DNA of 19,287 bases, taken from a virus. Both the position numbers and the translations under genes were made by a program. The stretch lies in UHGV virus genome UHGV-0298370; one strand, written 5' to 3'. Of the stretch, positions 526 to 18,258 are shown in pieces (positions within the stretch are counted from its first letter, which is position 1; each line of letters starts with the position of its first letter). The notes beneath the pieces were generated by a model that saw only the letters and a program-made list of their open reading frames with translations, was not told where the DNA came from and did not search any database.

Positions 526-746
526 GAAATATTGAGGGATTCGCAGATGGCGGGATCGGTATGTCTTTTGATGCAATCAGAGGGGCTTTTTACGATGCAG
601 GAACACGATCAGCGAGAATGCCGAATAACACAACTACTATAGACAAAACCGATGACCTTGGATTCGACGCCTCTCGTGTCGTGCCAACAGCTAATGAAAA
701 CCGTCCACGTAACATCGCCTTTAATTATATTGTGAGGGCTGCATAA
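480..746 (+). CDS. putative orphan tail-fibre C-terminal cassette (frame open from 420, no ATG; GTG at 480); possibly a remnant
   Basis: Frame is open 420-746 after a TGA at 417-419 and ends in TAA overlapping the ATG of the following tail fibre assembly gene (TAATG at 744-748), the arrangement expected for a fibre tip followed by its chaperone. Function inferred from context only. Confidence 0.3.
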   Translation: MDAGRQLLSSQGDAIRNIEGFADGGIGMSFDAIRGAFYDAGTRSARMPNNTTTIDKTDDLGFDASRVVPTANENRPRNIAFNYIVRAA

Positions 747-1339
747 TGAAACCTGTTTTTGATGAAAATGGGCTGGCTACAGTGCCGGGTGATATGCGTT
801 GTTTTTATTATGATGCTGAAACATCTGAGTATACGGGCTGGTCTGATGAATATATTAATACTGGCGTAAGTATGCCCGCCTGTTCAACTGGTATTGACCC
901 TGGCGAAAACATTCCGGGAAAAGTGGCTGTATTTACAGGTAAGGGATGGAGCCATGAAGAGGACCATCGCAATGAGACTGTTTACTCAATCGAAAATGGC
1001 GCAGCTGTTACAGTGGATTATATCGGTGCCATCAAAAACGGTTATGTCACGCTTTCACCGTTAACGCCATATGATAAATGGGATGGTGAGAAATGGGTGA
1101 CAGATACTGAGGCACAACACGGTGCCGCAGTAGAAGCGGCAGAAGCACAGCGCCAGTCACTGATTGATGCAGCAATGGCTTCCATCAGTCTGATTCAGCT
1201 GAAATTACAGGCCGGGCGGAAGCTGACGCAGGCAGAAACCACCCGGCTTAACGCCGTGCTTGATTACATTGACGCGGTGACGGCAACAGATACGAGCACC
1301 GCTCCGGATGTCATCTGGCCTGGACTGCCGGAGGCGTAG
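746..1339 (+). CDS. tail fibre assembly protein (Tfa family), second copy convergent with gpG
   Basis: 197 aa; C-terminus ...LDYIDAVTATDTSTAPDVIWPGLPEA matches the conserved Tfa C-terminal motif and parallels the gpG-like C-terminus ...LDYLDALELVDTSSAPDIEWP on the opposite strand; GAGGG SD upstream. Confidence 0.75.
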   Translation: MKPVFDENGLATVPGDMRCFYYDAETSEYTGWSDEYINTGVSMPACSTGIDPGENIPGKVAVFTGKGWSHEEDHRNETVYSIENGAAVTVDYIGAIKNGYVTLSPLTPYDKWDGEKWVTDTEAQHGAAVEAAEAQRQSLIDAAMASISLIQLKLQAGRKLTQAETTRLNAVLDYIDAVTATDTSTAPDVIWPGLPEA

Positions 1340-1745
1340 GCCATTCAATATCTGGAGCACTGGAGGTATCAACCAGTTCCAGTGCGTCCAGATAATCCAG
1401 CCACAAATTATATTGCGCCAGTTCCTCACCTTTCAGACGACCAATAGCCGCTTTACCAGGCCATTGCTTGGTATTCATATATTCGTTGGACTGATTAATC
1501 AATTGCTGTTTTTTCAATTCGGCTGCGGCAATCTGTTCCTCATGTGTTGGTGGTGGAATTTCAGACCATGCAGGAAAACCATTTTCCCCAGCGATACGGA
1601 TTTTTCCTTTCGGCGGTAATCCGGAAAACTCAATATACACCTGCTCATCAACTTCAACAGCATCATCTGGCCATGAATTTACATTGATGTAGTCATCCTT
1701 AAGCGCAGGATTCACAAAAATATTTAAAGATGGACTAAAAAACAC
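1311..1745 (-). CDS. G: tail fibre assembly protein gpG-like
   Basis: 144 aa, GTG start at 1745 one nt after the H stop with AGGAGG SD; conserved Tfa C-terminal motif; position immediately downstream of H as in P2. Confidence 0.8.
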   Translation of the reverse strand: MFFSPSLNIFVNPALKDDYINVNSWPDDAVEVDEQVYIEFSGLPPKGKIRIAGENGFPAWSEIPPPTHEEQIAAAELKKQQLINQSNEYMNTKQWPGKAAIGRLKGEELAQYNLWLDYLDALELVDTSSAPDIEWPTPPAVQAR

Positions 1746-1746
1746 A

Positions 1747-3144
1747 TCACCCTCCTATAGCAACATAACAGCCCGATACAGGATTTGCGGCAGTCGCTAC
1801 GCTGGAAAAACCACGAAAGCCGCTTTTTGTGATTGCGGAGGCAGATAGTATTCCGGCACCCGAAGGTGTATGCCCCACGTGGCTGGCAACCATCACGTAG
1901 CACGCCGACGGAAAAGCGAAAGGGAAATTGTTTAAATATCCCGCATCATCCCCCAGACTTCCCCCAAACTGCCCCACTCCCCACTGGATAATAAGTGGTC
2001 TCCGAACGCCAGAAATAATTAATGGAATTGCTACATACCCATTCACCAACATAGCGCCGGTTGTTGCGCCAGCCAGAGCCAATTCCCCCAAACCAAGGTA
2101 TGTGAGAAGACCAGCTACATCCTTTCCACTCAAATTGGTAAGCGTATTGTCCAGCGGTTGTTTACCTGCCAGCGCATTAAGCATTGTCGTGGCAAAGTTC
2201 GGATCATTCCCCAGTGCCGCCGCCAGTTCGTTCAGTGTATCCAGTGCAGCAGGTGCAGAACCCACCATTCCTGCAATCGCCGATTTCACAAAAGCCGTAG
2301 TGGCAATCTGTGTATTGTTGACCGACTGCGCCGCCGTGGGGGCTGTTGGCGTTCCGGTGAGTGCCGGACTCGACAACGGTGCTTTTAGTGCCAGCGCATT
2401 GTTAATGGTGGTACTGAAATTCGGATCATTGTTAATGGCTGAGGCTATTTCTTTCAGCGTGTCCAGCGTGGCTGGCGCACCATTAATAAGGGCCGTCAGT
2501 GCCGCCTGTACAAACGCAGTGGTCGCAACCTGCGTGGTATTATTCCCCGCCGCTGGCGTTGGCGCTTTGGGGGTTCCGGTAAATGTCGGGCTGGCTTTTG
2601 GCGCGTACTGTGAATGCGGGTCCGGTGCGGCAAGATGTTTTGCCATCTGATCATCCGCGTACACCTTCAGCTCCAGTGCCTTGTCATCCACATACTTGCG
2701 GGTTGCCAGCACTACAGCAGGGTCGATTTTCAGGGTGATATTGTCCGTACTGCTGGTAATCAGCACCATGCGCACGGTCTGAGTGCGCCCGCTACCTTCA
2801 GCCAGTTGCGGCTTATAGCTTTCCGGGCAGTTGCCCACGGCAATCAATGCCCCGGACTCATCAAACAAGCCCACTTCACGTATCCACCAACCGCCCTCGT
2901 TTTCAGGGATCACCTGTTCGGCAATAATCTGGCTGCTGTTCTGCGGGTCGATATAAAGCATATTCAGCGCAGCCCGGCGTTTCTCATTTACCAGTGCCGT
3001 CTGCTTTGCGTCCGGCGTTGGCAATACTCCACCGCCATCGCCCACCGCCATATGGGTAATTTTTAGCGGCACACCGAGCGCGGCGGCGCTGGCAAGTTTC
3101 GCCGCGCCAATATCCGTCAGCAGGGTATAAAATTTTGTGCTCAT
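1747..3144 (-). CDS. H: tail fibre protein gpH
   Basis: 465 aa; N-terminus MSTKFYTLLTDIGAAKLA...MAVGDGGG...AVGNCPESYKPQLAEGSGR closely resembles P2 gpH N-terminal constant region; internal ATTAFV/NDPNF repeats typical of the family; ATG start, ATGA overlap with gpI. Confidence 0.9.
   Translation of the reverse strand: MSTKFYTLLTDIGAAKLASAAALGVPLKITHMAVGDGGGVLPTPDAKQTALVNEKRRAALNMLYIDPQNSSQIIAEQVIPENEGGWWIREVGLFDESGALIAVGNCPESYKPQLAEGSGRTQTVRMVLITSSTDNITLKIDPAVVLATRKYVDDKALELKVYADDQMAKHLAAPDPHSQYAPKASPTFTGTPKAPTPAAGNNTTQVATTAFVQAALTALINGAPATLDTLKEIASAINNDPNFSTTINNALALKAPLSSPALTGTPTAPTAAQSVNNTQIATTAFVKSAIAGMVGSAPAALDTLNELAAALGNDPNFATTMLNALAGKQPLDNTLTNLSGKDVAGLLTYLGLGELALAGATTGAMLVNGYVAIPLIISGVRRPLIIQWGVGQFGGSLGDDAGYLNNFPFAFPSACYVMVASHVGHTPSGAGILSASAITKSGFRGFSSVATAANPVSGCYVAIGG
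2152..2589. repeat. internal tandem duplication inside H (two ~73-codon units)
   Basis: Protein residues ~186-257 and ~258-331 repeat the pattern TGTP.APT.AA..NNTQ.ATTAFV....APA.LDTL.E.A.A..NDPNF.TT..NALA.K.PL; visible as repeated DNA blocks. Confidence 0.6.
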
Positions 3145-9535: not shown

Positions 9536-10594
9536 TTACGCTCCGGTTTCTGCTGCAGCGGCGCTGAAATCGCCAATCTGGATGTTTTCCACCAGTGCGG
9601 CGCAGCGGTAGTCCTCAACCACATAGGCTTCGTTAACGGATTCAAAATTTTCAATCCGGTCACGTTTCGGGTTGTCGATAACTGAACGGCGGCGGGTATC
9701 TTCCTGCCAGTAGATGGACAGGTTATCCAGACGGGTGATCAGCAGCGCATTCGGCGGGAAGAACGGCGCACGCACCGCCTGCAGGCCACCCATGCGTTTC
9801 TGACTGATGATCATATCGGCAGCCAGTTTTTCACTGTTTTCCTGCTCTTTGTTGACCAGTGGGAAATACTTGTCAGACAACAGTTCACGACCGCAAATCA
9901 CCACCAGATCGTCATCGTCCTGGTAGACCACGTCGATAAGCTCATTGACGGCATCCATCACCACGGCGTCCAGGTTGGCATATTCGCCACCTTTCCCGAC
10001 TTTCACCGCACCCGGTGTGGTTTCACCGCCCGTGGTGGTGCTGCCCATGACGTGATCCGGTGCATCTTCACGGATTTTCTGCAGCCAGCCTTTATTCACA
10101 TCCTGCAGCAGCGGGTTTTCGCTACGGTTTGAGGTTTTCGCACGCTTCACGCCGTTAAAGCCGATCATGATGCGGTCCAGTGCCTGACGTTTCACGATCG
10201 CGTCACGAATACGCACCTGGAAATCCTGAAACTTCGCCCACAGGTCCAGCTTCGCGTAGGTCAGCACCGTGTCAAAGTTGGTCTGCTCGCATTTGTATTC
10301 CACATCGACCATCAGCGTCGGATCGACAGGCTCACGCTCTTTTGCGGTGGTATCAGTGGTTCCGGCAATGGTGCTGCCAACACCCAGCCCCAGCAGCTGA
10401 CCAGACTGCTCGGTCACTGGCGTGACGTTAATCAGCGTCAGGAAAGCGGCGGATTGCTGGATCTGGTCTTCCAGCGTCTGCTGCACAGACGGCTCCACGG
10501 TGAACTTGCTGGACAGTTCTTCAACTGCCACACCGTTCAGACGCGCCAGCTGCTGCAGGTAAGCGTTAAAAGCAAAGCGGGTATTCTTCTTCAT
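9536..10594 (-). CDS. N: major capsid protein gpN
   Basis: 352 aa; MKKNTRFAFNAYLQQLARLNGV...KFTVEPSVQQTL...GFNGVKRAKTSNRSENPLLQDV...VISQKRMGGLQAV... near-collinear with P2 gpN. Confidence 0.95.
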   Translation of the reverse strand: MKKNTRFAFNAYLQQLARLNGVAVEELSSKFTVEPSVQQTLEDQIQQSAAFLTLINVTPVTEQSGQLLGLGVGSTIAGTTDTTAKEREPVDPTLMVDVEYKCEQTNFDTVLTYAKLDLWAKFQDFQVRIRDAIVKRQALDRIMIGFNGVKRAKTSNRSENPLLQDVNKGWLQKIREDAPDHVMGSTTTGGETTPGAVKVGKGGEYANLDAVVMDAVNELIDVVYQDDDDLVVICGRELLSDKYFPLVNKEQENSEKLAADMIISQKRMGGLQAVRAPFFPPNALLITRLDNLSIYWQEDTRRRSVIDNPKRDRIENFESVNEAYVVEDYRCAALVENIQIGDFSAAAAETGA

Positions 10595-10610: not shown

Positions 10611-11444
10611 TCAGCAATTGGTCAGAGTGTCAGCGGGGGCGTTACCGCCTGTTGCACGCTGGCGGTAGTCCTGGCGGCTGTCTTCATGACTCAGCTTATT
10701 CACCAGTTCGTTAAAGGCGGTCTGCTGTGCCTGCAGGGCAGTCTCCAGCTCAGACAGACGTTCTTCCTGCTCAGACAGGGATTTTTCGGTGCGTGCGCTC
10801 AGGTTCTGCTGCTCAGTGGCGACCAGCTCCACGGCCTTATGCACATCAGAGAACCGGGCGTCATCGGACTGCTCTTTTTTGGTGAACAGCGCCGTGACAC
10901 GGGCAAACAGGGACGGTTTGTCATCCTGGATTTCTTCCAGTTCGATCACCGTTTCCTCTGCAGCGGTAAAGAGATTGGCAGGATTCTGCTTGCGGTTTGC
11001 CAGCGGGTTATGGGCTGCACTGGCGCTGAATGTCAGCATTTCAGTGCCCAGACTGGCAGGGTCATCAGTGGCAGCCAGGCCGACCAGGTAGGCTTTGCCC
11101 GTATCAGCGAACTTCGGGCTGACTTCCATAGAGGTGAATAATTTCTGGCCTTTTTTCACCAGTTCCACCAGGGACTCCGTTGGCTCAACGTCGGCATACA
11201 GCGCCATCTTGCCTGCCAGCGGACCTTCCGTGATTTCTTCAGCAAACAGCGCCGTCACCTTGCCGTAGCGGTTAAAGGTGCTGTCCGGCAGATAAGACTT
11301 GATGTGCTCAAGGTTAATCAGCGCGGTATACACCGCCGGGTTGTAGCTGGCTGCCATCTGTTCCAGCCATTCACGCTGGATTTCGCGTCCGTCGGTGGTG
11401 GCACCTTCCACCCCGATGCGAAAACGCTTTGCTTTCACTGTCAT
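10611..11444 (-). CDS. O: capsid scaffolding protein gpO
   Basis: 277 aa; N-terminal protease-like region MTVKAKRFRIGVEGATTDGREI...YNPAVYTALINLEH and coiled-coil C-terminus, as P2 gpO; first gene of the leftward late operon. Confidence 0.9.
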   Translation of the reverse strand: MTVKAKRFRIGVEGATTDGREIQREWLEQMAASYNPAVYTALINLEHIKSYLPDSTFNRYGKVTALFAEEITEGPLAGKMALYADVEPTESLVELVKKGQKLFTSMEVSPKFADTGKAYLVGLAATDDPASLGTEMLTFSASAAHNPLANRKQNPANLFTAAEETVIELEEIQDDKPSLFARVTALFTKKEQSDDARFSDVHKAVELVATEQQNLSARTEKSLSEQEERLSELETALQAQQTAFNELVNKLSHEDSRQDYRQRATGGNAPADTLTNC

Positions 11445-11586: not shown

Positions 11587-13353
11587 ATGAACACCACACT
11601 GACACCCGCAGATCTCGATCCCCGTCGGCAGGCCATGCTGCTGTACTTTCAGGGATACCGCGTAGCCCGCATTGCTGAAATGCTGGGCGAGAAAGTTGCA
11701 ACCGTTCACAGCTGGAAAAAACGCGACAAGTGGGGTGACTATGGGCCGCTGGATCAGATGCAGCTCACCACCGCCGCACGCTACTGCCAGCTCATTATGA
11801 AGGAGCACAAAGAAGGGAAAGATTTCAAAGAAATTGACCTGCTGGCGCGCCAGTCGGAGCGCCACGCGCGGATCGGCAAGTTTAACAATGGCGGTAACGA
11901 AGCCGACTTAAACCCTAACGTCGCCAACCGCAACAAAGGCCCGCGCCGTCAGCCGGAAAAGAATGTTTTCACCGATGAACAGATTGAGAAGCTGGAAGAA
12001 ATTTTCCATTCCTCCATGTTCAACTACCAGCGCCACTGGTGGGAAGCCGGAAAAACCAACCGCATCCGCAACCTGCTGAAGTCACGCCAGATCGGCGCGA
12101 CCTTTTACTTTGCCCGTGAAGCCCTGATTGACGCCCTGCTTACCGGACGTAACCAGATTTTCCTTTCTGCCAGTAAGGCACAGGCTCACGTCTTTAAGCA
12201 GTACATCATAGACTTCGCCAAAGAAGTCGAGGTGGAGCTGAAAGGCGATCCGATGGTGCTTCCTAACGGAGCCACGCTTTACTTCCTCGGCACCAATGCC
12301 CGCACGGCCCAGAGTTATCACGGCAACCTGTATCTGGATGAATATTTCTGGATACCGAAATTCCAGGAGCTGCGCAAAGTGGCTTCCGGTATGGCTATTC
12401 ACAAAAAATGGCGACAAACCTATTTTTCCACGCCATCCAGCCTGACACACAGTGCTTATCCGTTCTGGTCCGGTGCGCTGTTCAACCGTGGGCGCAACAA
12501 GGCCGACAAGGTGGACATCGACCTGTCCCACAGCAATCTGGCCCCCGGCCTGCTGTGCGCAGACGGGCAATACCGCCAGATAGTCACCGTGGAAGATGCG
12601 GTGCGCGGCGGCTGTAACCTGTTCGACCTTGACCAGTTGCGCATGGAGTACAGCCCGGACGAATACCAGAACCTGCTGATGTGCGAGTTTGTGGACGATC
12701 TCGCGTCCGTGTTCCCGCTCAGCGAGCTGCAGGCGTGCATGGTGGACAGCTGGGAAGTCTGGACCGACTTTCATGCACTGGCTCTGCGCCCGTTTGGCTG
12801 GCGCGAAGTGTGGATCGGTTATGACCCGGCAAAAGGTACGCAAAACGGCGACAGCGCCGGATGCGTAGTGGTGGCACCGCCAGCCGTGCCTGGTGGTAAG
12901 TTCCGCATTCTTGAGCGTCACCAGTGGCGTGGGATGGACTTCCGCGCCCAGGCTGACGCCATCAAAAAACTGACCGAGCAGTACAACGTGACCTACATCG
13001 GCATCGACTCGACAGGTGTCGGCCACGGGGTTTACGAGAACGTGAAAGCGTTTTTTCCAGCCGTCCGGGAGTTTGTCTATAACCCCAATGTTAAAAACGC
13101 CCTGGTACTCAAGGCCTACGACATTATCAGCCACCGCCGTCTGGAGTTTGACGCCGGACACACCGACATAGCGCAGTCATTCATGGCAATCCGTCGCGCC
13201 ACCACCGCGAGCGGCAACCGCCCAACCTATGAAGCCAGCCGCAGCGAAGAAGCCAGCCACGCCGATCTGGCCTGGGCAACGATGCACGCACTGTTTAACG
13301 AACCGCTGCAGGGCGAATCCGCCAATACCAGCAATATTGTGGAGATTTTTTGA
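11587..13353 (+). CDS. P: terminase ATPase (large) subunit gpP
   Basis: 588 aa; N-terminus MNTTLTPADLDPRRQAMLLYFQGYRVARIAEMLGE... and body match P2 gpP; divergent from O as in P2. Confidence 0.95.
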   Translation: MNTTLTPADLDPRRQAMLLYFQGYRVARIAEMLGEKVATVHSWKKRDKWGDYGPLDQMQLTTAARYCQLIMKEHKEGKDFKEIDLLARQSERHARIGKFNNGGNEADLNPNVANRNKGPRRQPEKNVFTDEQIEKLEEIFHSSMFNYQRHWWEAGKTNRIRNLLKSRQIGATFYFAREALIDALLTGRNQIFLSASKAQAHVFKQYIIDFAKEVEVELKGDPMVLPNGATLYFLGTNARTAQSYHGNLYLDEYFWIPKFQELRKVASGMAIHKKWRQTYFSTPSSLTHSAYPFWSGALFNRGRNKADKVDIDLSHSNLAPGLLCADGQYRQIVTVEDAVRGGCNLFDLDQLRMEYSPDEYQNLLMCEFVDDLASVFPLSELQACMVDSWEVWTDFHALALRPFGWREVWIGYDPAKGTQNGDSAGCVVVAPPAVPGGKFRILERHQWRGMDFRAQADAIKKLTEQYNVTYIGIDSTGVGHGVYENVKAFFPAVREFVYNPNVKNALVLKAYDIISHRRLEFDAGHTDIAQSFMAIRRATTASGNRPTYEASRSEEASHADLAWATMHALFNEPLQGESANTSNIVEIF

Positions 13354-14060
13354 TGCCCCCAATCCCAACTAACCTCATGACTATCGCGGGACTTCCGGTG
13401 GATAGCTTTTTCTTTGCTTACCAGTATGAGTGGAACACTGGCCCAAAGAGTAGAAACCGTGTACTCACAAAAATGCGCCAGGCAGGCGCGGATTTCTTTT
13501 TTTCCTATGAAGCCCTGAACGATGCACTGCATACCGGGCGTAACCAGATTTTCCTCTGCTGCAGCACAGCATCTGCGCAGGCAATCAAAGCCTGTGTATC
13601 AGCATTCTTAAGCCAGGCCGCAGCTTATACGCACACTGGAAAAATAAAATCAGGCAAAAGTCATCTGGAGCTTCCGAATGGTGCAGTAATTTATTTTACC
13701 GACCTCAGCAGTCTCACCTCCGCACTCAGTGGAAATGTTTACGTGTCAGAGTATGCCTGGAGTGAATCACCGAGAAATATGATTGCCATCGCTAAAGGGA
13801 TTTCTATGCACGCACACTACCACGCCACCTACTACACCACTCCCAGCCCTAACCCAGAGGCACGGCAGGAATATAAAAAGCTATGCAGAAACAACAGCGT
13901 AACCAGCATGGTGTTCACCGCAGATGACGCAGCAGCATCTGGAGCAATGTTGTTTACTGATAACTGGCTGAACGATATGAAAAAAGAATTATCAGAAGAG
14001 GACTGGAAAATGCTGTTTATGTGCGAATGGCCTCTCGCTAGCAAGGAACTGGCAGAATGA
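13353..14060 (+). CDS. terminase-ATPase-like paralog (truncated, diverged copy of gpP central region)
   Basis: ATG at 13353 overlaps the P stop (TGATG) and its stop overlaps the Q start (ATGA). Protein aligns by eye to gpP residues ~140-400 (FAYQYEWNTGPKSRNR / FNYQRHWWEAGKTNRIR; EALNDALHTGRNQIFL / EALIDALLTGRNQIFL; GNVYVSEYAW / GNLYLDEYFW). A 24-nt stretch at 13532-13555 is 23/24 identical to 12141-12164 in P. Confidence 0.6.
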   Translation: MPPIPTNLMTIAGLPVDSFFFAYQYEWNTGPKSRNRVLTKMRQAGADFFFSYEALNDALHTGRNQIFLCCSTASAQAIKACVSAFLSQAAAYTHTGKIKSGKSHLELPNGAVIYFTDLSSLTSALSGNVYVSEYAWSESPRNMIAIAKGISMHAHYHATYYTTPSPNPEARQEYKKLCRNNSVTSMVFTADDAAASGAMLFTDNWLNDMKKELSEEDWKMLFMCEWPLASKELAE

Positions 14061-15085
14061 GCAAACGTAAAAACACCAAGCAGGTAACAGTTGATCACGA
14101 CACAAAACCAAGCAACGGCCCAACGGCTGAGGCTTTCAGCTTTGGTGATCCCATCCCCGTGCTGGACCGCCGCGAACTGCTGGACTATGTGGAATGCGTA
14201 CAGATGGATCGCTGGTATGAGCCGCCCGTCAGCTTTAATGGACTGGCGCGCACCTTCCGCGCCGCCGTGCATCACAGTTCCCCGATTGCAGTAAAGTGCA
14301 ACATTCTGACCAGTACCTATATCCCTCATCCGCTGCTTAGCCAGCAGGCTTTTTCGCGTTTTGTGCAGGACTATCTGGTATTTGGTAACGCCTACCTGGA
14401 GAAACGCACGAACCGCTTTGGTGAAGTTATCGCCCTTGAGCCAGCTTTGGCAAAATACACCCGACGCGGATTAGACCTGGATACCTACTGGTTTGTGCAA
14501 TACGGTATGACAGCCCAGCCGTATCAGTTCACGAAAGGCAGCATTTTTCATCTGATGGAACCGGACATCAACCAGGAGATCTACGGCCTGCCAGGTTATC
14601 TTTCTGCCATCCCGTCAGCCCTGCTCAACGAGTCCGCCACACTGTTCCGCCGTAAGTATTACATCAACGGCAGCCATGCAGGTTTCATCATGTACATGAC
14701 CGATGCCGCGCAGAACCAAGAAGATGTGAACAACCTCCGCAACGCAATGAAAAGCGCCAAAGGGCCAGGCAACTTCCGCAACCTGTTTATGTACTCTCCT
14801 AACGGCAAAAAGGACGGGCTTCAGATTATCCCGTTGTCAGAAGTCGCGGCGAAGGATGAGTTTCTGAATATCAAGAACGTGAGTCGGGACGACATGATGG
14901 CGGCACACCGTGTGCCGCCGCAAATGATGGGGATAATGCCTAATAATGTTGGGGGCTTTGGAGATGTAGAGAAGGCGAGTAAAGTATTTGTACGTAATGA
15001 ATTATTGCCATTGCAAAAAAGATTACAAGAAATAAACAATTTCATAGAAGAAGGTGTTATTGAATTCCAAGAATACCATTTCTAA
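14057..15085 (+). CDS. Q: portal protein gpQ
   Basis: 342 aa; ...EAFSFGDPIPVLDRRELLDYVECVQMDRWYEPPVSFNGLARTFRAAVHHSSPI...NESATLFRRKYYINGSHAGFIMY...NGKKDGLQIIPLSEVAAKDEF... matches P2 gpQ. Confidence 0.95.
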   Translation: MSKRKNTKQVTVDHDTKPSNGPTAEAFSFGDPIPVLDRRELLDYVECVQMDRWYEPPVSFNGLARTFRAAVHHSSPIAVKCNILTSTYIPHPLLSQQAFSRFVQDYLVFGNAYLEKRTNRFGEVIALEPALAKYTRRGLDLDTYWFVQYGMTAQPYQFTKGSIFHLMEPDINQEIYGLPGYLSAIPSALLNESATLFRRKYYINGSHAGFIMYMTDAAQNQEDVNNLRNAMKSAKGPGNFRNLFMYSPNGKKDGLQIIPLSEVAAKDEFLNIKNVSRDDMMAAHRVPPQMMGIMPNNVGGFGDVEKASKVFVRNELLPLQKRLQEINNFIEEGVIEFQEYHF

Positions 15086-15087
15086 TT

Positions 15088-15118
15088 AAAAAAAAGGGAG
15101 GCAACCTCCCTTTTTTTT
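15088..15118. terminator. bidirectional rho-independent terminator between convergent Q and cargo gene
   Basis: A8-GGGAGG-CAA-CCTCCC-T8: 6-bp GC stem, 3-nt loop, flanked by A-run and T-run so it reads as a terminator on both strands; overlaps the TAA of the minus-strand cargo gene. Confidence 0.75.
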
Positions 15119-16883
15119 AAACATTATCGTATAACTCTTGTATTTTCGTTGGATTTGCAAAAAATCTTGCCGGATAGGCATTCGGGTAATTATCTTCAAT
15201 GTACTCTTCAGCACGTTGAATTAATGCACTTAATTCTTCGGAAAGATTTTTTTCATCTGGAACAAGAATTTCTGAGCTATTATGTATCCCAGAAACGTTG
15301 CTCAATAGTACAGACGCATAGTATCTATTACCATGCGTAATAATTAAATGCTTGCGACTATGGGTCGTTTTATCTACTGATAGTAATGTTTTACCGATCA
15401 ACTTATCTATAACTCTAAAATGTAGAACAGTATTGATAAGTTTTAAACCACTTAATCTTGGATTGAAAATAGTTTTATATAGAGAGCCTTCAAAATTTTC
15501 AAAAAACCTACCGCGATTTGATTTTAGTGTCGATACAACCGTATTATTTTTACTTAAACATGCGAGTGCATTGAGCGCCTCATCCAAGTCAATGACTTTC
15601 GTATTTGTCTGTGAATGATCTTCATCTGTTCTTAGTAACTGATATTGATATCCTTCAAGCACTAACTCCCTTGCCAATCTATGTTGATCTGCCTGCTGCG
15701 ATGCAAAATCTCTTCCCAATACTCTATTTTGGAAATTGTTAGCTTTTGTAATTGCATTTGCAGTTAAATTATCAGTATCATCATCTATAACAATGAATCT
15801 AGCTGGCACTTTGAGTCTATATATGTTTTCACCAAGCGCATCTTTACATGCGCCAATACTACTGACTGTTTGTGCACCATTAATGACACTTACATCACGA
15901 AAATCAAAAATCCCTCTCTCTATATTAGGAGCTGCGTTTCGTCTATGAGGAACAACTTCCTTAACCAGTACAGTAATCCCATTATTATAAAACCAAAACA
16001 TATCAGGATTATCTATAGCTGTCTTTTTTATTTCCTCATTCACTTCTGTTTTACCAAGCATATTCCTTATGTTTTTTGTAAATAATCGAGCACCATGCTC
16101 TTCCCACCATTCTGCAACTTGATCACCACTAATAGCCCCGTAAAAAGCTTGATATGGTTCATTCAAAAATCCAAAACGCTCAATTTCAACCCTGTTAAGA
16201 TCAATTTGATTTCGAGAGCCATTCTGTAACCAATGCATCATATCTTCAGAGGATATTAAATGAACCTGAAATCCCCAGTTCTCTTTAGGCTCATCCTCAG
16301 GTGTAAAAGCTGCAGCGTTTAATTGATATTGCCATTCCCGCATATCATTTAATATTTCCTCTGCAGCACCTTTTTTACCTGTATGCGCCATCGCAAAGAT
16401 GAACTTGTATTCAAAACTACTTAAAGCCGCACTTATTTCCCCGCTTTTATTTTGCAATATGGAATCAAATAATTCGTATCTTTCACTTTGTAGCTTCTCA
16501 CAAGCATCCTTAAAACACATAAAATCGGCTCTTGTCCAAGTGCCGTTTCCCGATTGGTGAAATTTTGATTGAACAACAACAACGATTTTTTCGTTATGGT
16601 TGATTGCTATTCCATCTATACCACCATCTTCACTACTATCACATACAGACTCCCCTGCATACTTATCATCCACACATCCTAACTGATACATAGTGAATGC
16701 AGCTAAAGCCCTGCTAGCCATTTTTACATCATAGTCTGCTTGGCCTGGTGCACACTCTCTTTTATGGATGAATTCTTCATATCTCTTACGTAATACAGAT
16801 CCTAGCCTCTGAGCCATAACCTGTGCTGTCGCAGGTGCAGCAATAGCATTATCTTCAAGCCGAATATCAGTTACAAAAGCCAC
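15117..16883 (-). CDS. Mrr-type nuclease-domain protein with AIPR-like architecture (candidate abortive-infection/defence protein)
   Basis: Long AT-rich ORF; start uncertain (TTG 16940 without SD, GTG 16883 with GGAGGG SD, ATG 16817). N-terminal motif SEDGGIDGIAINHNEKIVVVVQSKFH resembles the Mrr catalytic PD-(D/E)xK core (D-G-G-I-D ... Q-x-K). Size and layout are reminiscent of AIPR-family proteins; not verified by HMM. Confidence 0.65.
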   Translation of the reverse strand: MAFVTDIRLEDNAIAAPATAQVMAQRLGSVLRKRYEEFIHKRECAPGQADYDVKMASRALAAFTMYQLGCVDDKYAGESVCDSSEDGGIDGIAINHNEKIVVVVQSKFHQSGNGTWTRADFMCFKDACEKLQSERYELFDSILQNKSGEISAALSSFEYKFIFAMAHTGKKGAAEEILNDMREWQYQLNAAAFTPEDEPKENWGFQVHLISSEDMMHWLQNGSRNQIDLNRVEIERFGFLNEPYQAFYGAISGDQVAEWWEEHGARLFTKNIRNMLGKTEVNEEIKKTAIDNPDMFWFYNNGITVLVKEVVPHRRNAAPNIERGIFDFRDVSVINGAQTVSSIGACKDALGENIYRLKVPARFIVIDDDTDNLTANAITKANNFQNRVLGRDFASQQADQHRLARELVLEGYQYQLLRTDEDHSQTNTKVIDLDEALNALACLSKNNTVVSTLKSNRGRFFENFEGSLYKTIFNPRLSGLKLINTVLHFRVIDKLIGKTLLSVDKTTHSRKHLIITHGNRYYASVLLSNVSGIHNSSEILVPDEKNLSEELSALIQRAEEYIEDNYPNAYPARFFANPTKIQELYDNV

Positions 16884-16985
16884 AGTCCCTCCATAAAGAC
16901 ATCTGGTACAACTCAATGCTGGGAATAGTGCACATTTCAATGAGATAAATCCACTAATAATCTAGGATTTATGAGTTAGCGCGCG

Positions 16986-17139: not shown

Positions 17140-18258
17140 TTAGTTCGTAATGCCAATTTCCTTCAAAACTTTAGCCATTTCCGTCTGACTTAACTTGTTC
17201 CTGAACAAAGGGAAATTTTTCATTTTTTCCGCTCGTTGCCCTTTTGAAATAGTAATCTTTCCTGATGCTGATAACTCAGAGTCAAAAAAATAACATATTG
17301 TTGAATTTGAATTCTCCATATTTGACTTGATACAATTCCATATGCTTTCTTTTTTCATTTCACACATTCTAGGACCAAAAATGATCCCTTTAACAACATT
17401 AGCATCATGATGAAAAATATGTCCAATATTTCGATTTACGCGTCTTTGAACATGCCGCTCACTCCCTATTCCTGCATTTGCCTCTGGAATAAACATTCGA
17501 TATTCAGCTTCATATCTCCAAAATCTATTTTTAGTTAAAAATAACTCTGCAACATTTGCGCTTGGGTCTAGAAGTGAAACCTCTTTAGCCTGATTACTAT
17601 ATTTTATTTGCTTAACTGGAAAATTAAATTTATCTGATGAAAATAAATTTTCTCTTAGCTTCATTCCAGGATGTGGCACGCCATTAATATTAAAATCCTG
17701 CGTTTCATAAATCACAACACAACCACTAAAGCCTGCAGCATAATGCGCCCACATCATACGATCTAACGCATTAGCTGAAAATGACACACTGAATACTGCA
17801 GGAACTATTTTCCTATACAACCTTTCTTTGATACTGTTCTCGCAAAGTGAGACCAAAAATTGGCGTGGTTCAGGAATATTCCCATAAATAGCGGAATTAA
17901 TCACATTGATAGGTAGTAAACCATCATTTATGATCTTACGTATCTCATCAACGTGTGAGTCAAACAGGCTATCTAATGACTCAATGCTACTTTTTATTTT
18001 TTTTCCTCTAAAAATACGATTCAATCCCTTATGTATCTTCAAATTACTCAAATCTAATATGTGACTCAAATTTTCATAGGATTTATCGCAAGGAGAACGC
18101 AATAAAATATCCCATAATTTCAATTTATTATCAAAACGATAATCTATATTGAGATCATTAGGATCATTCAATTGCGCAGGAGCGGAAAAATATAATTCAT
18201 TATAACGAATAGCTTTCTCGAAGAAGAAGTCCGGACGGTAATACTTGAAAAGATACAT
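17140..18258 (-). CDS. DUF2971-like protein (candidate defence-associated protein of unknown mechanism)
   Basis: 372 aa, AT-rich; N-terminus MYLFKYYRPDFFFEKAIRYNELYFSAPAQLNDPND matches the hallmark DUF2971 N-terminal pattern (KY..........LYFS.P..xNDPxD); ATG start; terminator-like hairpin downstream. Confidence 0.7.
   Translation of the reverse strand: MYLFKYYRPDFFFEKAIRYNELYFSAPAQLNDPNDLNIDYRFDNKLKLWDILLRSPCDKSYENLSHILDLSNLKIHKGLNRIFRGKKIKSSIESLDSLFDSHVDEIRKIINDGLLPINVINSAIYGNIPEPRQFLVSLCENSIKERLYRKIVPAVFSVSFSANALDRMMWAHYAAGFSGCVVIYETQDFNINGVPHPGMKLRENLFSSDKFNFPVKQIKYSNQAKEVSLLDPSANVAELFLTKNRFWRYEAEYRMFIPEANAGIGSERHVQRRVNRNIGHIFHHDANVVKGIIFGPRMCEMKKESIWNCIKSNMENSNSTICYFFDSELSASGKITISKGQRAEKMKNFPLFRNKLSQTEMAKVLKEIGITN

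Follow-up and report, generated by a model that had tools for sequence, protein, structure and literature searches.

A free-standing terminase ATPase-domain paralogue, a probable member of the 186 W family, encoded between the terminase and portal genes of the virus genome UHGV-0298370

The open reading frame located between the gpP and gpQ genes of the virus genome UHGV-0298370 (13353–14060, plus strand, 235 aa), referred to here as X, is a homologue of the W family of phage 186, a kind of gene that has already been annotated and not a novelty of this prophage. For the window, i.e., the whole 19,287-nt stretch that was analysed, this identification of X as a W-family homologue is mainly an annotation point. 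The explanation that we tentatively regard as the best is that X, as a member of the 186 W family, would be an optional, co-translated accessory, namely, a nucleotide-binding mimic of the TerL ATPase domain that modulates packaging. Among P2/186-like phages, a minority have long kept a free-standing terminase ATPase domain in their packaging operon, and the 186 gene has stood in its GenBank record for decades, labelled merely “similar to Orf12.”

The late P-X-Q operon is opened by the gene for gpP, the large terminase subunit (588 aa, 11587–13353, plus strand), which carries an N-terminal HTH (Terminase_5), an ATPase (Terminase_6N) and a nuclease (Terminase_6C) domain, and its last gene encodes the portal protein gpQ (342 aa, 14057–15085, plus strand). 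The 235-codon frame with overlaps on both sides, described by an earlier sequence-only reading, was confirmed at 13353–14060. At the P/X junction (13341–13355, plus strand), the gpP stop codon TGA (13351–13353) and the X start codon ATG (13353–13355) share the overlap TGATG, preceded by the Shine-Dalgarno sequence GGAG (13341–13344) within the last gpP codons. At the X/Q junction (14043–14060, plus strand), an SD-like AAGGAA (14043–14048) lies in the last X codons, and the gpQ start ATG (14057–14059) and the X stop TGA (14058–14060) form the overlap ATGA. The GGAG box and the TGATG/TAATG overlap are kept in Escherichia coli, Klebsiella, Pantoea, Buttiauxella, 186 and PSP3; the ATGA overlap with its upstream purine-rich box is kept at all but one of the ten X/W-bearing loci compared, and the remaining locus, L025, carries a paralogue that may have been duplicated independently. 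Such conserved stop/start overlaps on both flanks indicate that X would be translationally coupled to its neighbours, so it is predicted to be made alongside the terminase and portal and in similar amounts. No X-specific promoter-like site was found in the sequence scan, terminator-like matches in the region were at chance level (8 found against 5.2 expected), and a terminator-like hairpin at 13474–13490 falls within the X coding sequence; the 186 record annotates the operon from promoter p12 to terminator tW. The layout of the region shows X as a gene predicted to be transcribed within the late P-Q operon.

The expectation that P and Q are normally adjacent held for the X-less relatives compared, in which the two genes are contiguous with the same TGATG junction. 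In these prophages, the sequence of the P/X junction acts as the gpQ start, and the natural X-less P/Q junction reads ...GGAGATTTTTTGATG-gpQ. Relative to X-less E. coli P2-like prophages, the variable cassette spans 13356–14131 (plus strand) and comprises X together with the first ~25 gpQ codons; likeness picks up again at ~14132 (AEAFSFGDP). X lies next to a recombination and defence hotspot, and the neighbouring AIPR/AbiU-like and PDC-S31-like genes match PADLOC models. Several other readings of the locus were considered and set aside. A −1 frameshift fusing P to X at the T-run by the gpP stop, where the X frame is open from TTG at 13350, was rejected because the T-run is not kept in other lineages and because the identical sequence precedes gpQ in X-less phages. 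Two antisense frames over X (13227–13532 and 13832–14329, minus strand) had no Pfam match and were taken as spurious, and no Rfam family was found across the window.

The claim that X corresponds only to the central part of gpP was upheld by BLASTP (32% identity over gpP residues 142–368, E 6e-31, 107 bits). Terminase_6N (E 3.7e-16) is the sole Pfam domain in X, against the three found in gpP, so both the first ~140 residues of gpP and its nuclease half are absent from X, as had also been claimed. PHROG 3746 matches X as well (2.9e-84). In the AF2 model of X (pLDDT 78), the best fold matches were the TerL ATPase domains of D6E, P74-26, T4 gp17, Sf6 and HK97, and the model shows a complete predicted RecA-type terminase ATPase fold. 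A profile search of the X family against PDB sequences gave no match, and solved terminases were linked to X by the fold search only; likewise, no NCBIfam or PADLOC model matched X, the PADLOC models covering defence and not anti-defence. The 24-nt stretch encoding TGRNQIFL (13532–13555, plus strand) is indeed identical to gpP positions 12141–12164 at 23 of 24 positions. As to base composition, the reported AT-richness of X (GC 47.9%, GC3 50.8%) is clear in comparison with P (56.5% and 69.6%) but only slight in comparison with Q (49.9% and 58.9%).

The active-site motifs of X are partly preserved and partly remodelled. The Q-motif-like F21-A-Y-Q24 (13413–13424; FNYQ in gpP) has F21 and Q24 invariant in 26 family members, and the C-motif-like T159-Y-Y-T-T-P-S165 (13827–13847) corresponds to TYFSTPS in gpP. 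The deviant Walker A, K40-M-R-Q-A-G-A-D47 (13470–13493), differs from KSRQIGAT of gpP by the replacement of Thr with Asp, with K40, R42, G45, A46 and D47 invariant in the subfamily alignment; this second active-site change was absent from the sequence-only reading. The change that it did describe, LYLDEY of gpP against VYVSEY in X, was verified by alignment: in the Walker B region Y130-V-S132-E133-Y-A-W136 (13740–13760; YLDEYFW in gpP), S132 stands in place of Asp, and the subfamily shows no variation at S132, E133, A135 or W136. In the loop before Walker B (S119–S126, the SLTSALS region, 13707–13730; all five motifs on the plus strand), the T-N-x-x-T-A-Q-S/G motif present in all full-length gpPs is incomplete in X, W and the other short paralogues aligned, and in the W/X lineage this loop is one residue shorter. 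Judged as a functional TerL, X departs from the Thr/Ser end of Walker A and the Walker B Asp and is devoid of the Terminase_6C RNase H-like nuclease and of the gpP-type Terminase_5 HTH; at the same time, it keeps the catalytic Glu (E133), the Q motif and the C motif. The description of X as “catalytically altered” stands as regards Walker B, but is too simple: the P-loop Lys/Arg and the catalytic Glu are invariant, as are both the Q and the C motif. The family-wide fixation of Thr-to-Asp together with Asp-to-Ser points to a site that is remodelled and constrained, not decayed, and this fixed pair offers a natural experiment on how P-loop ATPases coordinate metal.

Homologues of X with 33–91% identity occur in Escherichia, Salmonella, Citrobacter, Klebsiella, Pantoea, Yersinia and Buttiauxella, with the gene order P-X-Q in every context examined, which agrees with the proposed origin by an old event and not by a recent tandem copy. 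Among 5,426 E. coli genomes, the X type was found in 21, the 186-W type in 8 and gpP in 1,229; the X/W gene, present in ~2% of E. coli P2-like prophages, is not a standard component. That most relatives are devoid of X, that its dN/dS exceeds that of the neighbouring genes (0.2–0.43 against 0.01–0.06 for P, X evolving 5–40 times faster than P) and that a few records hold truncated or frameshifted copies might suggest a functionless remnant, left by a partial P duplication or by recombination between two P2-like phages. However, the frame is intact and the length conserved in at least 58 clusters down to 33–38% identity, the family (225–241 aa) has 30 invariant columns across 26 sequences down to 33% identity, clustered mainly in the motifs for nucleotide binding, dN/dS stays well under 1 and the putative translational coupling is kept on both flanks. 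The rates are those of a gene under purifying but relaxed selection, as estimated from the alignments, and the reading of X as a remnant, which retains hardly any credibility, is effectively refuted by the conservation data.

A much stricter role, in which W/X would be an obligatory core subunit, essential in the terminase holoenzyme of carrier phages as the genetic name “W” suggests, could account for retention in the same slot across genera, for the GenBank product name “W protein” and for the place of W among the letter-named 186 genes. Hocking and Egan are said to have described 186 W in 1982 as a classical conditional-lethal head gene. Nevertheless, gpM, gpN and gpO have the same protein accessions in an X-bearing and an X-less prophage, and the gpP encoded here is 99.8–100% identical to that of X-less and other X-bearing E. 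coli prophages, i.e., the proteins of X-bearing phages are those that work without X. Moreover, lethality of W amber mutations could be mere polarity on the translationally coupled portal gene, and the 186 GenBank record assigns the gene name “W” to both the ATPase-paralogue ORF and the portal ORF, an ambiguity that also weakens the explanation preferred here. Plaque-forming or inducible phages are known both with X/W (MLG42, YenM_201.16, 186 and PSP3) and without it (RSA1, Shewanella phages and Vibrio phages). An essential subunit is thus considered unlikely, and since the other head and packaging proteins are unchanged with or without X, an accessory is the more fitting description.

The role as accessory mimic that we prefer would proceed as follows. 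Nucleotide is probably bound by X, given that the catalytic Glu and the P-loop Lys/Arg are invariant together with both the Q and the C motif, and the remodelled metal site, with Asp for Thr in Walker A and Ser for Asp in Walker B, would make X a slow or regulatory NTPase and probably not a translocating one. By mimicking the TerL ATPase domain, X might dock on a gpP protomer or ring, or on the portal, and might then tune how the packaging motor assembles, fires or is released; X itself would neither bind TerS nor bind or cut DNA. Several observations speak against this scheme. There is no covariation between gpP and the occurrence of X, and no co-adaptation of gpP, gpM, gpN, gpO or gpQ with X was detected beyond the first ~25 Q codons travelling with the cassette. 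Compared with P and Q, the gene evolves much faster; it is patchy in its distribution and acts like a plug-in cassette by a recombination/defence hotspot, a pattern more usual for conflict genes than for assembly factors. The catalytic Glu is lost in several short paralogues, so NTP hydrolysis cannot be the common denominator of the family. Additionally, a related GAD-type clade is found in the early operon, directly after replication gene A and inside the A-Q accessory hotspot (the hotspot being the only region covered by Rousset 2022), and this location away from P/Q argues against an obligatory link to co-translation of the terminase and portal.

The same patchy, cassette-like distribution, the faster evolution than that of the flanking genes and the lack of partner co-adaptation would suit a counter-defence decoy, in which X mimics the TerL ATPase epitope and binds or titrates the Avs1–3/Upx sensors of the host without triggering them, its remodelled Mg2+/ATP site blocking productive ATP-bridged closure of the sensor. 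The TerL ATPase domain is a main target of bacterial pattern-recognition immunity, and the predicted fold of X also matches 8dgc, the Avs3-bound PhiV-1 terminase. For activation of EcAvs2 the ATPase domain is sufficient, and the sensor touches the ATP held by the terminase as well as the hydration shell of the Mg2+ (bioRxiv 10.64898/2026.04.30.721860); exactly these ligands are changed in X. The early-operon clade in the A-Q hotspot would suit a protein needed ahead of the terminase. However, the sole tested analogue, T4 vs.8, is reported to activate EcAvs2 upon co-expression instead of blocking it (bioRxiv 10.64898/2026.04.30.721860), 186 W-type members have canonical Walker motifs, and X, being made simultaneously with the trigger, would have no head start. 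A term search of anti-defence and Avs preprints gave no terminase-like anti-defence protein, and the missing PADLOC match is a further point against, in a collection of defence models. A decoy for host terminase sensors is accordingly rated less likely than the accessory role and, on its own terms, rather improbable. In a narrower form, only the GAD/SE-type W-family proteins would be immune decoys for Avs1–3 and Upx, failing in ATP-bridged activation because two Mg2+-ligand positions are remodelled (Thr to Asp; Asp to Ser/Pro/Gly/Ala), with the early-operon clade as the same weapon deployed before the terminase; to this version we attach a low probability, although, if true, it would be the first counter-defence by duplication of the phage's own “pattern” protein.

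Conflict with other mobile elements was considered as well. [quoted passage not shown] The missing nuclease domain and gpP-specific loop and the altered Walker B are features expected of a ring poison, and X-bearing and W-bearing prophages do reside together in one E. coli genome. Given the near identity of E. coli gpP in X-bearing and X-less phages, though, a competitor's terminase would look the same to X as its own, and its expression is predicted to be tied to the late operon, without a promoter of its own. Phage 186, a W carrier, is reported to support P4, which counts against interference. So does the reliance of P4 on the helper's own terminase for packaging (Rousset 2022). A weapon of this kind appears very improbable.

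The accessory mimic of the TerL ATPase domain thus being preferred, its relation to known systems can be considered. The novelty implied by the sequence-only reading did not survive: phage 186 (AAC34147.1 / NP_052250.1) holds in the same slot a gene annotated as “W protein; similar to Orf12,” PSP3 orf2 (NP_958057.1) in that slot is annotated as “similar to 186 W,” and PGAP routinely labels X-type genes “terminase large subunit domain-containing protein.” That reading had named a standard, already characterised gene of the P-Q operon as grounds for withdrawing its proposal; this applies in part, an annotated gene existing in 186 and PSP3 that is not standard among E. coli P2-like prophages. Literature searches, whose coverage did not extend to the primary 186 W papers, yielded no mechanistic characterisation of X or 186 W, and papers on Yersinia phages and P2-like diversity do not mention an X-type gene.

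The likeness to 186 W concerns both placement and architecture. Like W, which lies between the homologues of P (Orf12) and Q (Orf2), X occupies the P-Q slot in the same orientation, with stop and start codons that overlap those of its neighbours, and like W (248 aa) it corresponds to the ATPase domain only of the cognate gpP/Orf12, its 235 aa falling in the W-family range of ~225–255 aa. Both are without the gpP TN..TAQ loop and share the replacement “S-HCAAL-GNVY,” and further derived characters of W/X are a 1-aa loop deletion, T for L before K-x-RQ and C(E/D)W at the C end. At the same time, W is only 32% identical to X (E 7e-33), and its score of 107 bits equals that of X against gpP, so that by BLAST score X stands equally far from 186 W and from gpP; W has canonical KSRQIGAT and YLDEF where X has GAD and SE, and ~25–35 residues after the C motif are missing in X and present in W and gpP. 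The protein of Yersinia phage 201.16 is 46% identical to 186 W, 35% to X and 36% to its own gpP, and such intermediates, together with the shared derived characters, favour a common descent of X and W as far as sequence comparison goes. In the neighbour-joining tree, the short-form clade has a bootstrap of 14% and deep nodes are unsupported, so that the tree does not separate one origin from several, which counts against the single-family part of the preferred explanation; moreover, at least one short paralogue, P0134, has its nearest relative in its own gpP, which suggests that independent origins are possible.

With P2 gpP, X shares the operon, the Q motif, the P-loop K-x-R-Q-x-G-A, the catalytic Glu and the C motif, and it differs by the absence of the HTH N-domain, nuclease and TN..TAQ loop and by the two Walker replacements. 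The closest parallel outside this group, compared by description only, is T4 vs.8, an uncharacterised stand-alone protein homologous to the gp17 ATPase domain (bioRxiv 10.64898/2026.04.30.721860). Like X, vs.8 is a phage-encoded, free-standing paralogue of the phage's own TerL ATPase domain; unlike X, it belongs to another phage family and has intact Walker A and B, and the two are presumably independent duplications. With the TerL ATPase domain as an immune target and vs.8 as a second such paralogue, the X/W proteins offer a tractable test of pseudo-subunits of the motor against decoys of the sensor.

The window contains the genes for head formation and packaging of a P2/186-like prophage, with the capsid gene gpN (9536–10594) and the scaffold gene gpO (10611–11444) on the minus strand, and the terminase gene gpP (11587–13353), the 235-codon ORF X (13353–14060) and the portal gene gpQ (14057–15085) on the plus strand. 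X is overlapped on both sides, as the sequence-only reading had described, by TGATG with the gpP stop and by ATGA with the gpQ start, and Shine-Dalgarno boxes are located within the final codons of the upstream gene. The retention of these boxes and stop/start overlaps in nine of the ten compared loci that carry X or W, the protein of coliphage 186 in the same slot, indicates translational coupling. X belongs to the late operon; no promoter-like site specific to it was found, antisense ORFs at X gave no family matches, and no RNA family matched in Rfam. At the other end of the window, two Caudo_TAP tail-fibre assembly genes (746–1339, plus strand; 1311–1745, minus strand) face each other and adjoin the tail fibre gene (1747–3144, minus strand), an arrangement typical of segments that invert to change host range. 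Relative to its nearest E. coli match, the X-bearing prophage CH4794, the window diverges over its first ~2 kb and its final ~300 bases.

The proposal that X encodes a truncated, diverged copy of the terminase ATPase region proved right, and the observation is real. The X protein aligned with residues 142–368 of gpP (32% identity, E 6e-31) and matched only Pfam Terminase_6N (3.7e-16), whereas gpP comprises Terminase_5, Terminase_6N and Terminase_6C. When an AlphaFold model built from 26 homologues (mean pLDDT 78, pTM 0.79) was compared with solved structures in Foldseek, the best matches were ATPase domains of large terminases (E down to 1e-6, probability 1.00), those of D6E, P74-26, T4 gp17, Sf6, HK97 and the Avs3-bound PhiV-1 terminase. 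The ATPase fold is complete in the model, but X has neither the HTH nor the nuclease domain of gpP and lacks the TN..TAQ loop. The reported change of the gpP Walker B LYLDEY to VYVSEY was recovered, as was the 24-nt stretch (13532–13555) with 23 of 24 positions identical to gpP 12141–12164. The claimed AT-richness held against P (GC 47.9% vs 56.5%) but is only marginal against Q (49.9%).

Thirty columns were invariant among 26 X-family sequences, namely those in the Q-motif-like F21-x-x-Q24, the P-loop K40-x-R42-Q-x-G45-A46-D47, G62-R-x-Q65, G127-N-x-Y130-x-S132-E133-Y-A135-W136, the C-motif region T159...S165, and W226; full-length gpPs have K-S-R-Q-I-G-A-T and D-E at the corresponding sites. 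That X is a dead remnant is refuted by this conservation and deserves next to no weight. In a broader set of short paralogues, obtained by a profile search of 1.84 billion proteins, the Walker A and Walker B changes were coupled: where Walker A reads G-A-D, the Walker B Asp is replaced by S, P, G or A, and paralogues with Thr or Ser ending Walker A mostly retain D-E. The catalytic Glu was lost in a few lineages (DD in PSP3 W, L022 2435–3181; PN, DH, DN, DQ or QD in others), the Glu-less proteins also including P0063, P0094, P0134, P0144 and P0195, so ATP hydrolysis cannot be required across the wider group. Judging from these motifs, the active site of X is constrained but not canonical, with a remodelled metal site in which Asp47 may stand in for the Walker B Asp as metal ligand; nucleotide binding is likely and motor-type hydrolysis doubtful. 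On the same phage pairs, pairwise dN/dS was 0.20–0.43 for X, 0.00–0.06 for P and 0.05–0.12 for Q. Between the window (11587–15085) and the prophage of E. coli TUM2820 (locus L008), dS climbed steeply along the operon: P had 0.20, X 0.77 and Q 1.72. This points to recombination mosaicism near Q, with breakpoints near the P/X junction and much older alleles towards cos.

A tblastn search of phage genomes gave matches at the same relative position in coliphage 186, PSP3, Erwinia phage EtG and Escherichia phage Midge. The 186 record places a 248-aa "W protein; similar to Orf12" between Orf12 (the P2 P homologue) and Orf2 (the P2 Q homologue), in an operon annotated from the B-dependent promoter p12 to the terminator tW, and the PSP3 counterpart is annotated "similar to 186 W". 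The identity of 186 W is 37% with the Orf12 of the same phage and 32% with X (E 7e-33). The W and X types are bridged by the Yersinia phage 201.16 protein, which shares 46% identity with 186 W (208 bits), 36% with the gpP of that phage and 35% with X. Compared with 21 of 21 full-length gpPs, W and X share the loss of the invariant T-N-x-x-T-A-Q-S/G loop about ten residues ahead of Walker B (a 1-residue deletion with an "S-HCAAL-GNVY"-like substitute), Thr instead of Leu before K-x-R-Q, and C-terminal C-(E/D)-W instead of C-E-F. Because of the annotated counterpart, the bridge and these derived characters, X is assigned to the 186 W family as one of its diverged members. Two caveats apply: the neighbour-joining tree grouped all short paralogues with a bootstrap of only 14%, and at least one of them, P0134, was closest to its own gpP, so repeated partial duplications are possible. 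If the classical 186 W mutants lie in this ORF, X/W could be an obligatory subunit in the phages that carry it; we regard this as unlikely. The 186 record gives the gene name W to both the W and the portal ORFs, and a polar effect on the coupled portal gene could plausibly confound these mutants.

Among 5.8 billion proteins searched, X homologues fell into 58 clusters, almost all of 225–241 aa and at least 38% identical to X, from Escherichia, Salmonella, Citrobacter, Klebsiella, Leclercia, Phytobacter, Pantoea, Yersinia and Buttiauxella. All contexts inspected were P-X-Q with overlapping stop and start codons, in Yersinia phages vB_YpM_MLG42 and vB_YenM_201.16, in Pantoea, Buttiauxella and Klebsiella prophages and in several E. 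coli prophages. In a deleted prophage remnant of E. coli JS316 (L003 5297–7763), X and Q are intact, and the 3′ part of gpP, annotated as a partial 'oxidoreductase', has become fused next to a truncated tape-measure gene. In Escherichia phage 500465-1 (NC_049342; L002 6001–7758), X (177 aa called) and the portal (two pieces) are both interrupted, which suggests frameshift errors in the sequencing, or a phage entry that is really a degraded prophage.

X is an optional, plug-in gene. Among 5,426 complete E. coli genomes, megablast, which would miss more divergent alleles, detected gpP in 1,229, X-type genes in 21 and 186-W-type genes in eight, and only ~21 of 485 phage records with a gpP-like match showed a second such place. 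Both types occurred together in one strain, ARL09/232 (NZ_CP049967.1), in two P2/186-like prophages at ~1300566 and ~4269738. P adjoins Q directly in phages of Ralstonia, Shewanella and Vibrio, as it does in an E. coli prophage without X. Similarity between the window and the X-less prophage of strain ECONIH5 extends through the shared TTTTTTGATG and restarts at ~14132, which delimits a cassette of X plus the first ~25 Q codons; the original Q start site has been taken over by X, which supplies Q with a new one. The portal segment 14057–14131 is not the same in E. coli prophages with and without X and moves with the cassette. Apart from the distant L025 locus, every phage examined that carries X or W has a gpQ beginning MSK(R/P/H)K. 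The gpM, gpN and gpO accessions are the same in CH4794 and ECONIH5, and gpP is 99.8% identical, so the partners are not co-adapted to X. The identity of gpP between phages with and without X also disfavours X as an interference weapon, which we regard as very improbable.

A distant G-A-D clade (P0084, P0093, P0110), whose members match X-type paralogues with better scores than they match the gpPs of the same prophages, is not in the P-Q slot. In the two long contigs examined, from other P2-like prophages, its genes (L023 4001–4750; L027 5001–5738; Walker A G-A-D, Walker B S/P-E-W) come immediately after gene A, for the replication endonuclease, in the early operon. They thus lie within the A-Q accessory region, and nothing separates P from Q there. 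This location implies that co-translation with terminase and portal is not the whole story of function.

Our preferred, still tentative, reading is that X is an accessory modulator: it would bind nucleotide, mimic the TerL ATPase domain and dock on gpP or the portal, thereby tuning motor assembly, firing or release. A decoy role against host terminase sensors is rather improbable: the ATPase domain by itself suffices to trigger EcAvs2, which touches the ATP bound to the terminase and the Mg2+ shell, but the T4 analogue vs.8 activates EcAvs2 and does not block it (bioRxiv 10.64898/2026.04.30.721860). Confirmation of the decoy reading would sharply raise the interest of X. Just downstream of Q lie an AIPR-family/AbiU-like gene (15117–16940, minus strand; Pfam AIPR 7e-35, PADLOC AbiU 7e-25; GC 36.7%) and a DUF2971/PDC-S31-like gene (17140–18258, minus strand; GC 33.5%), both very AT-rich against ~56% GC in the head genes; Rousset 2022 describes the region past Q as the A-Q defence hotspot of P2-like phages.

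X is a new diverged member of an annotated, functionally uncharacterised family and not a new kind of element. Four features may be novel, no mention of them having been found in the accessible literature: the joint fixation of Thr-to-Asp and Asp-to-Ser, the absence of the loop specific to gpP, the make-up of the cassette and the relatives in the early operon. The parent family is the gpP-type TerL, whose defining nuclease, HTH, Walker A Thr and Walker B Asp are absent from X. T4 vs.8 is a functional analogue, likened to X by description alone. The closest known relative is 186 W/PSP3 orf2, with the same slot and architecture, but its Walker motifs differ from those of X and the segment after the C-motif is shorter in X.
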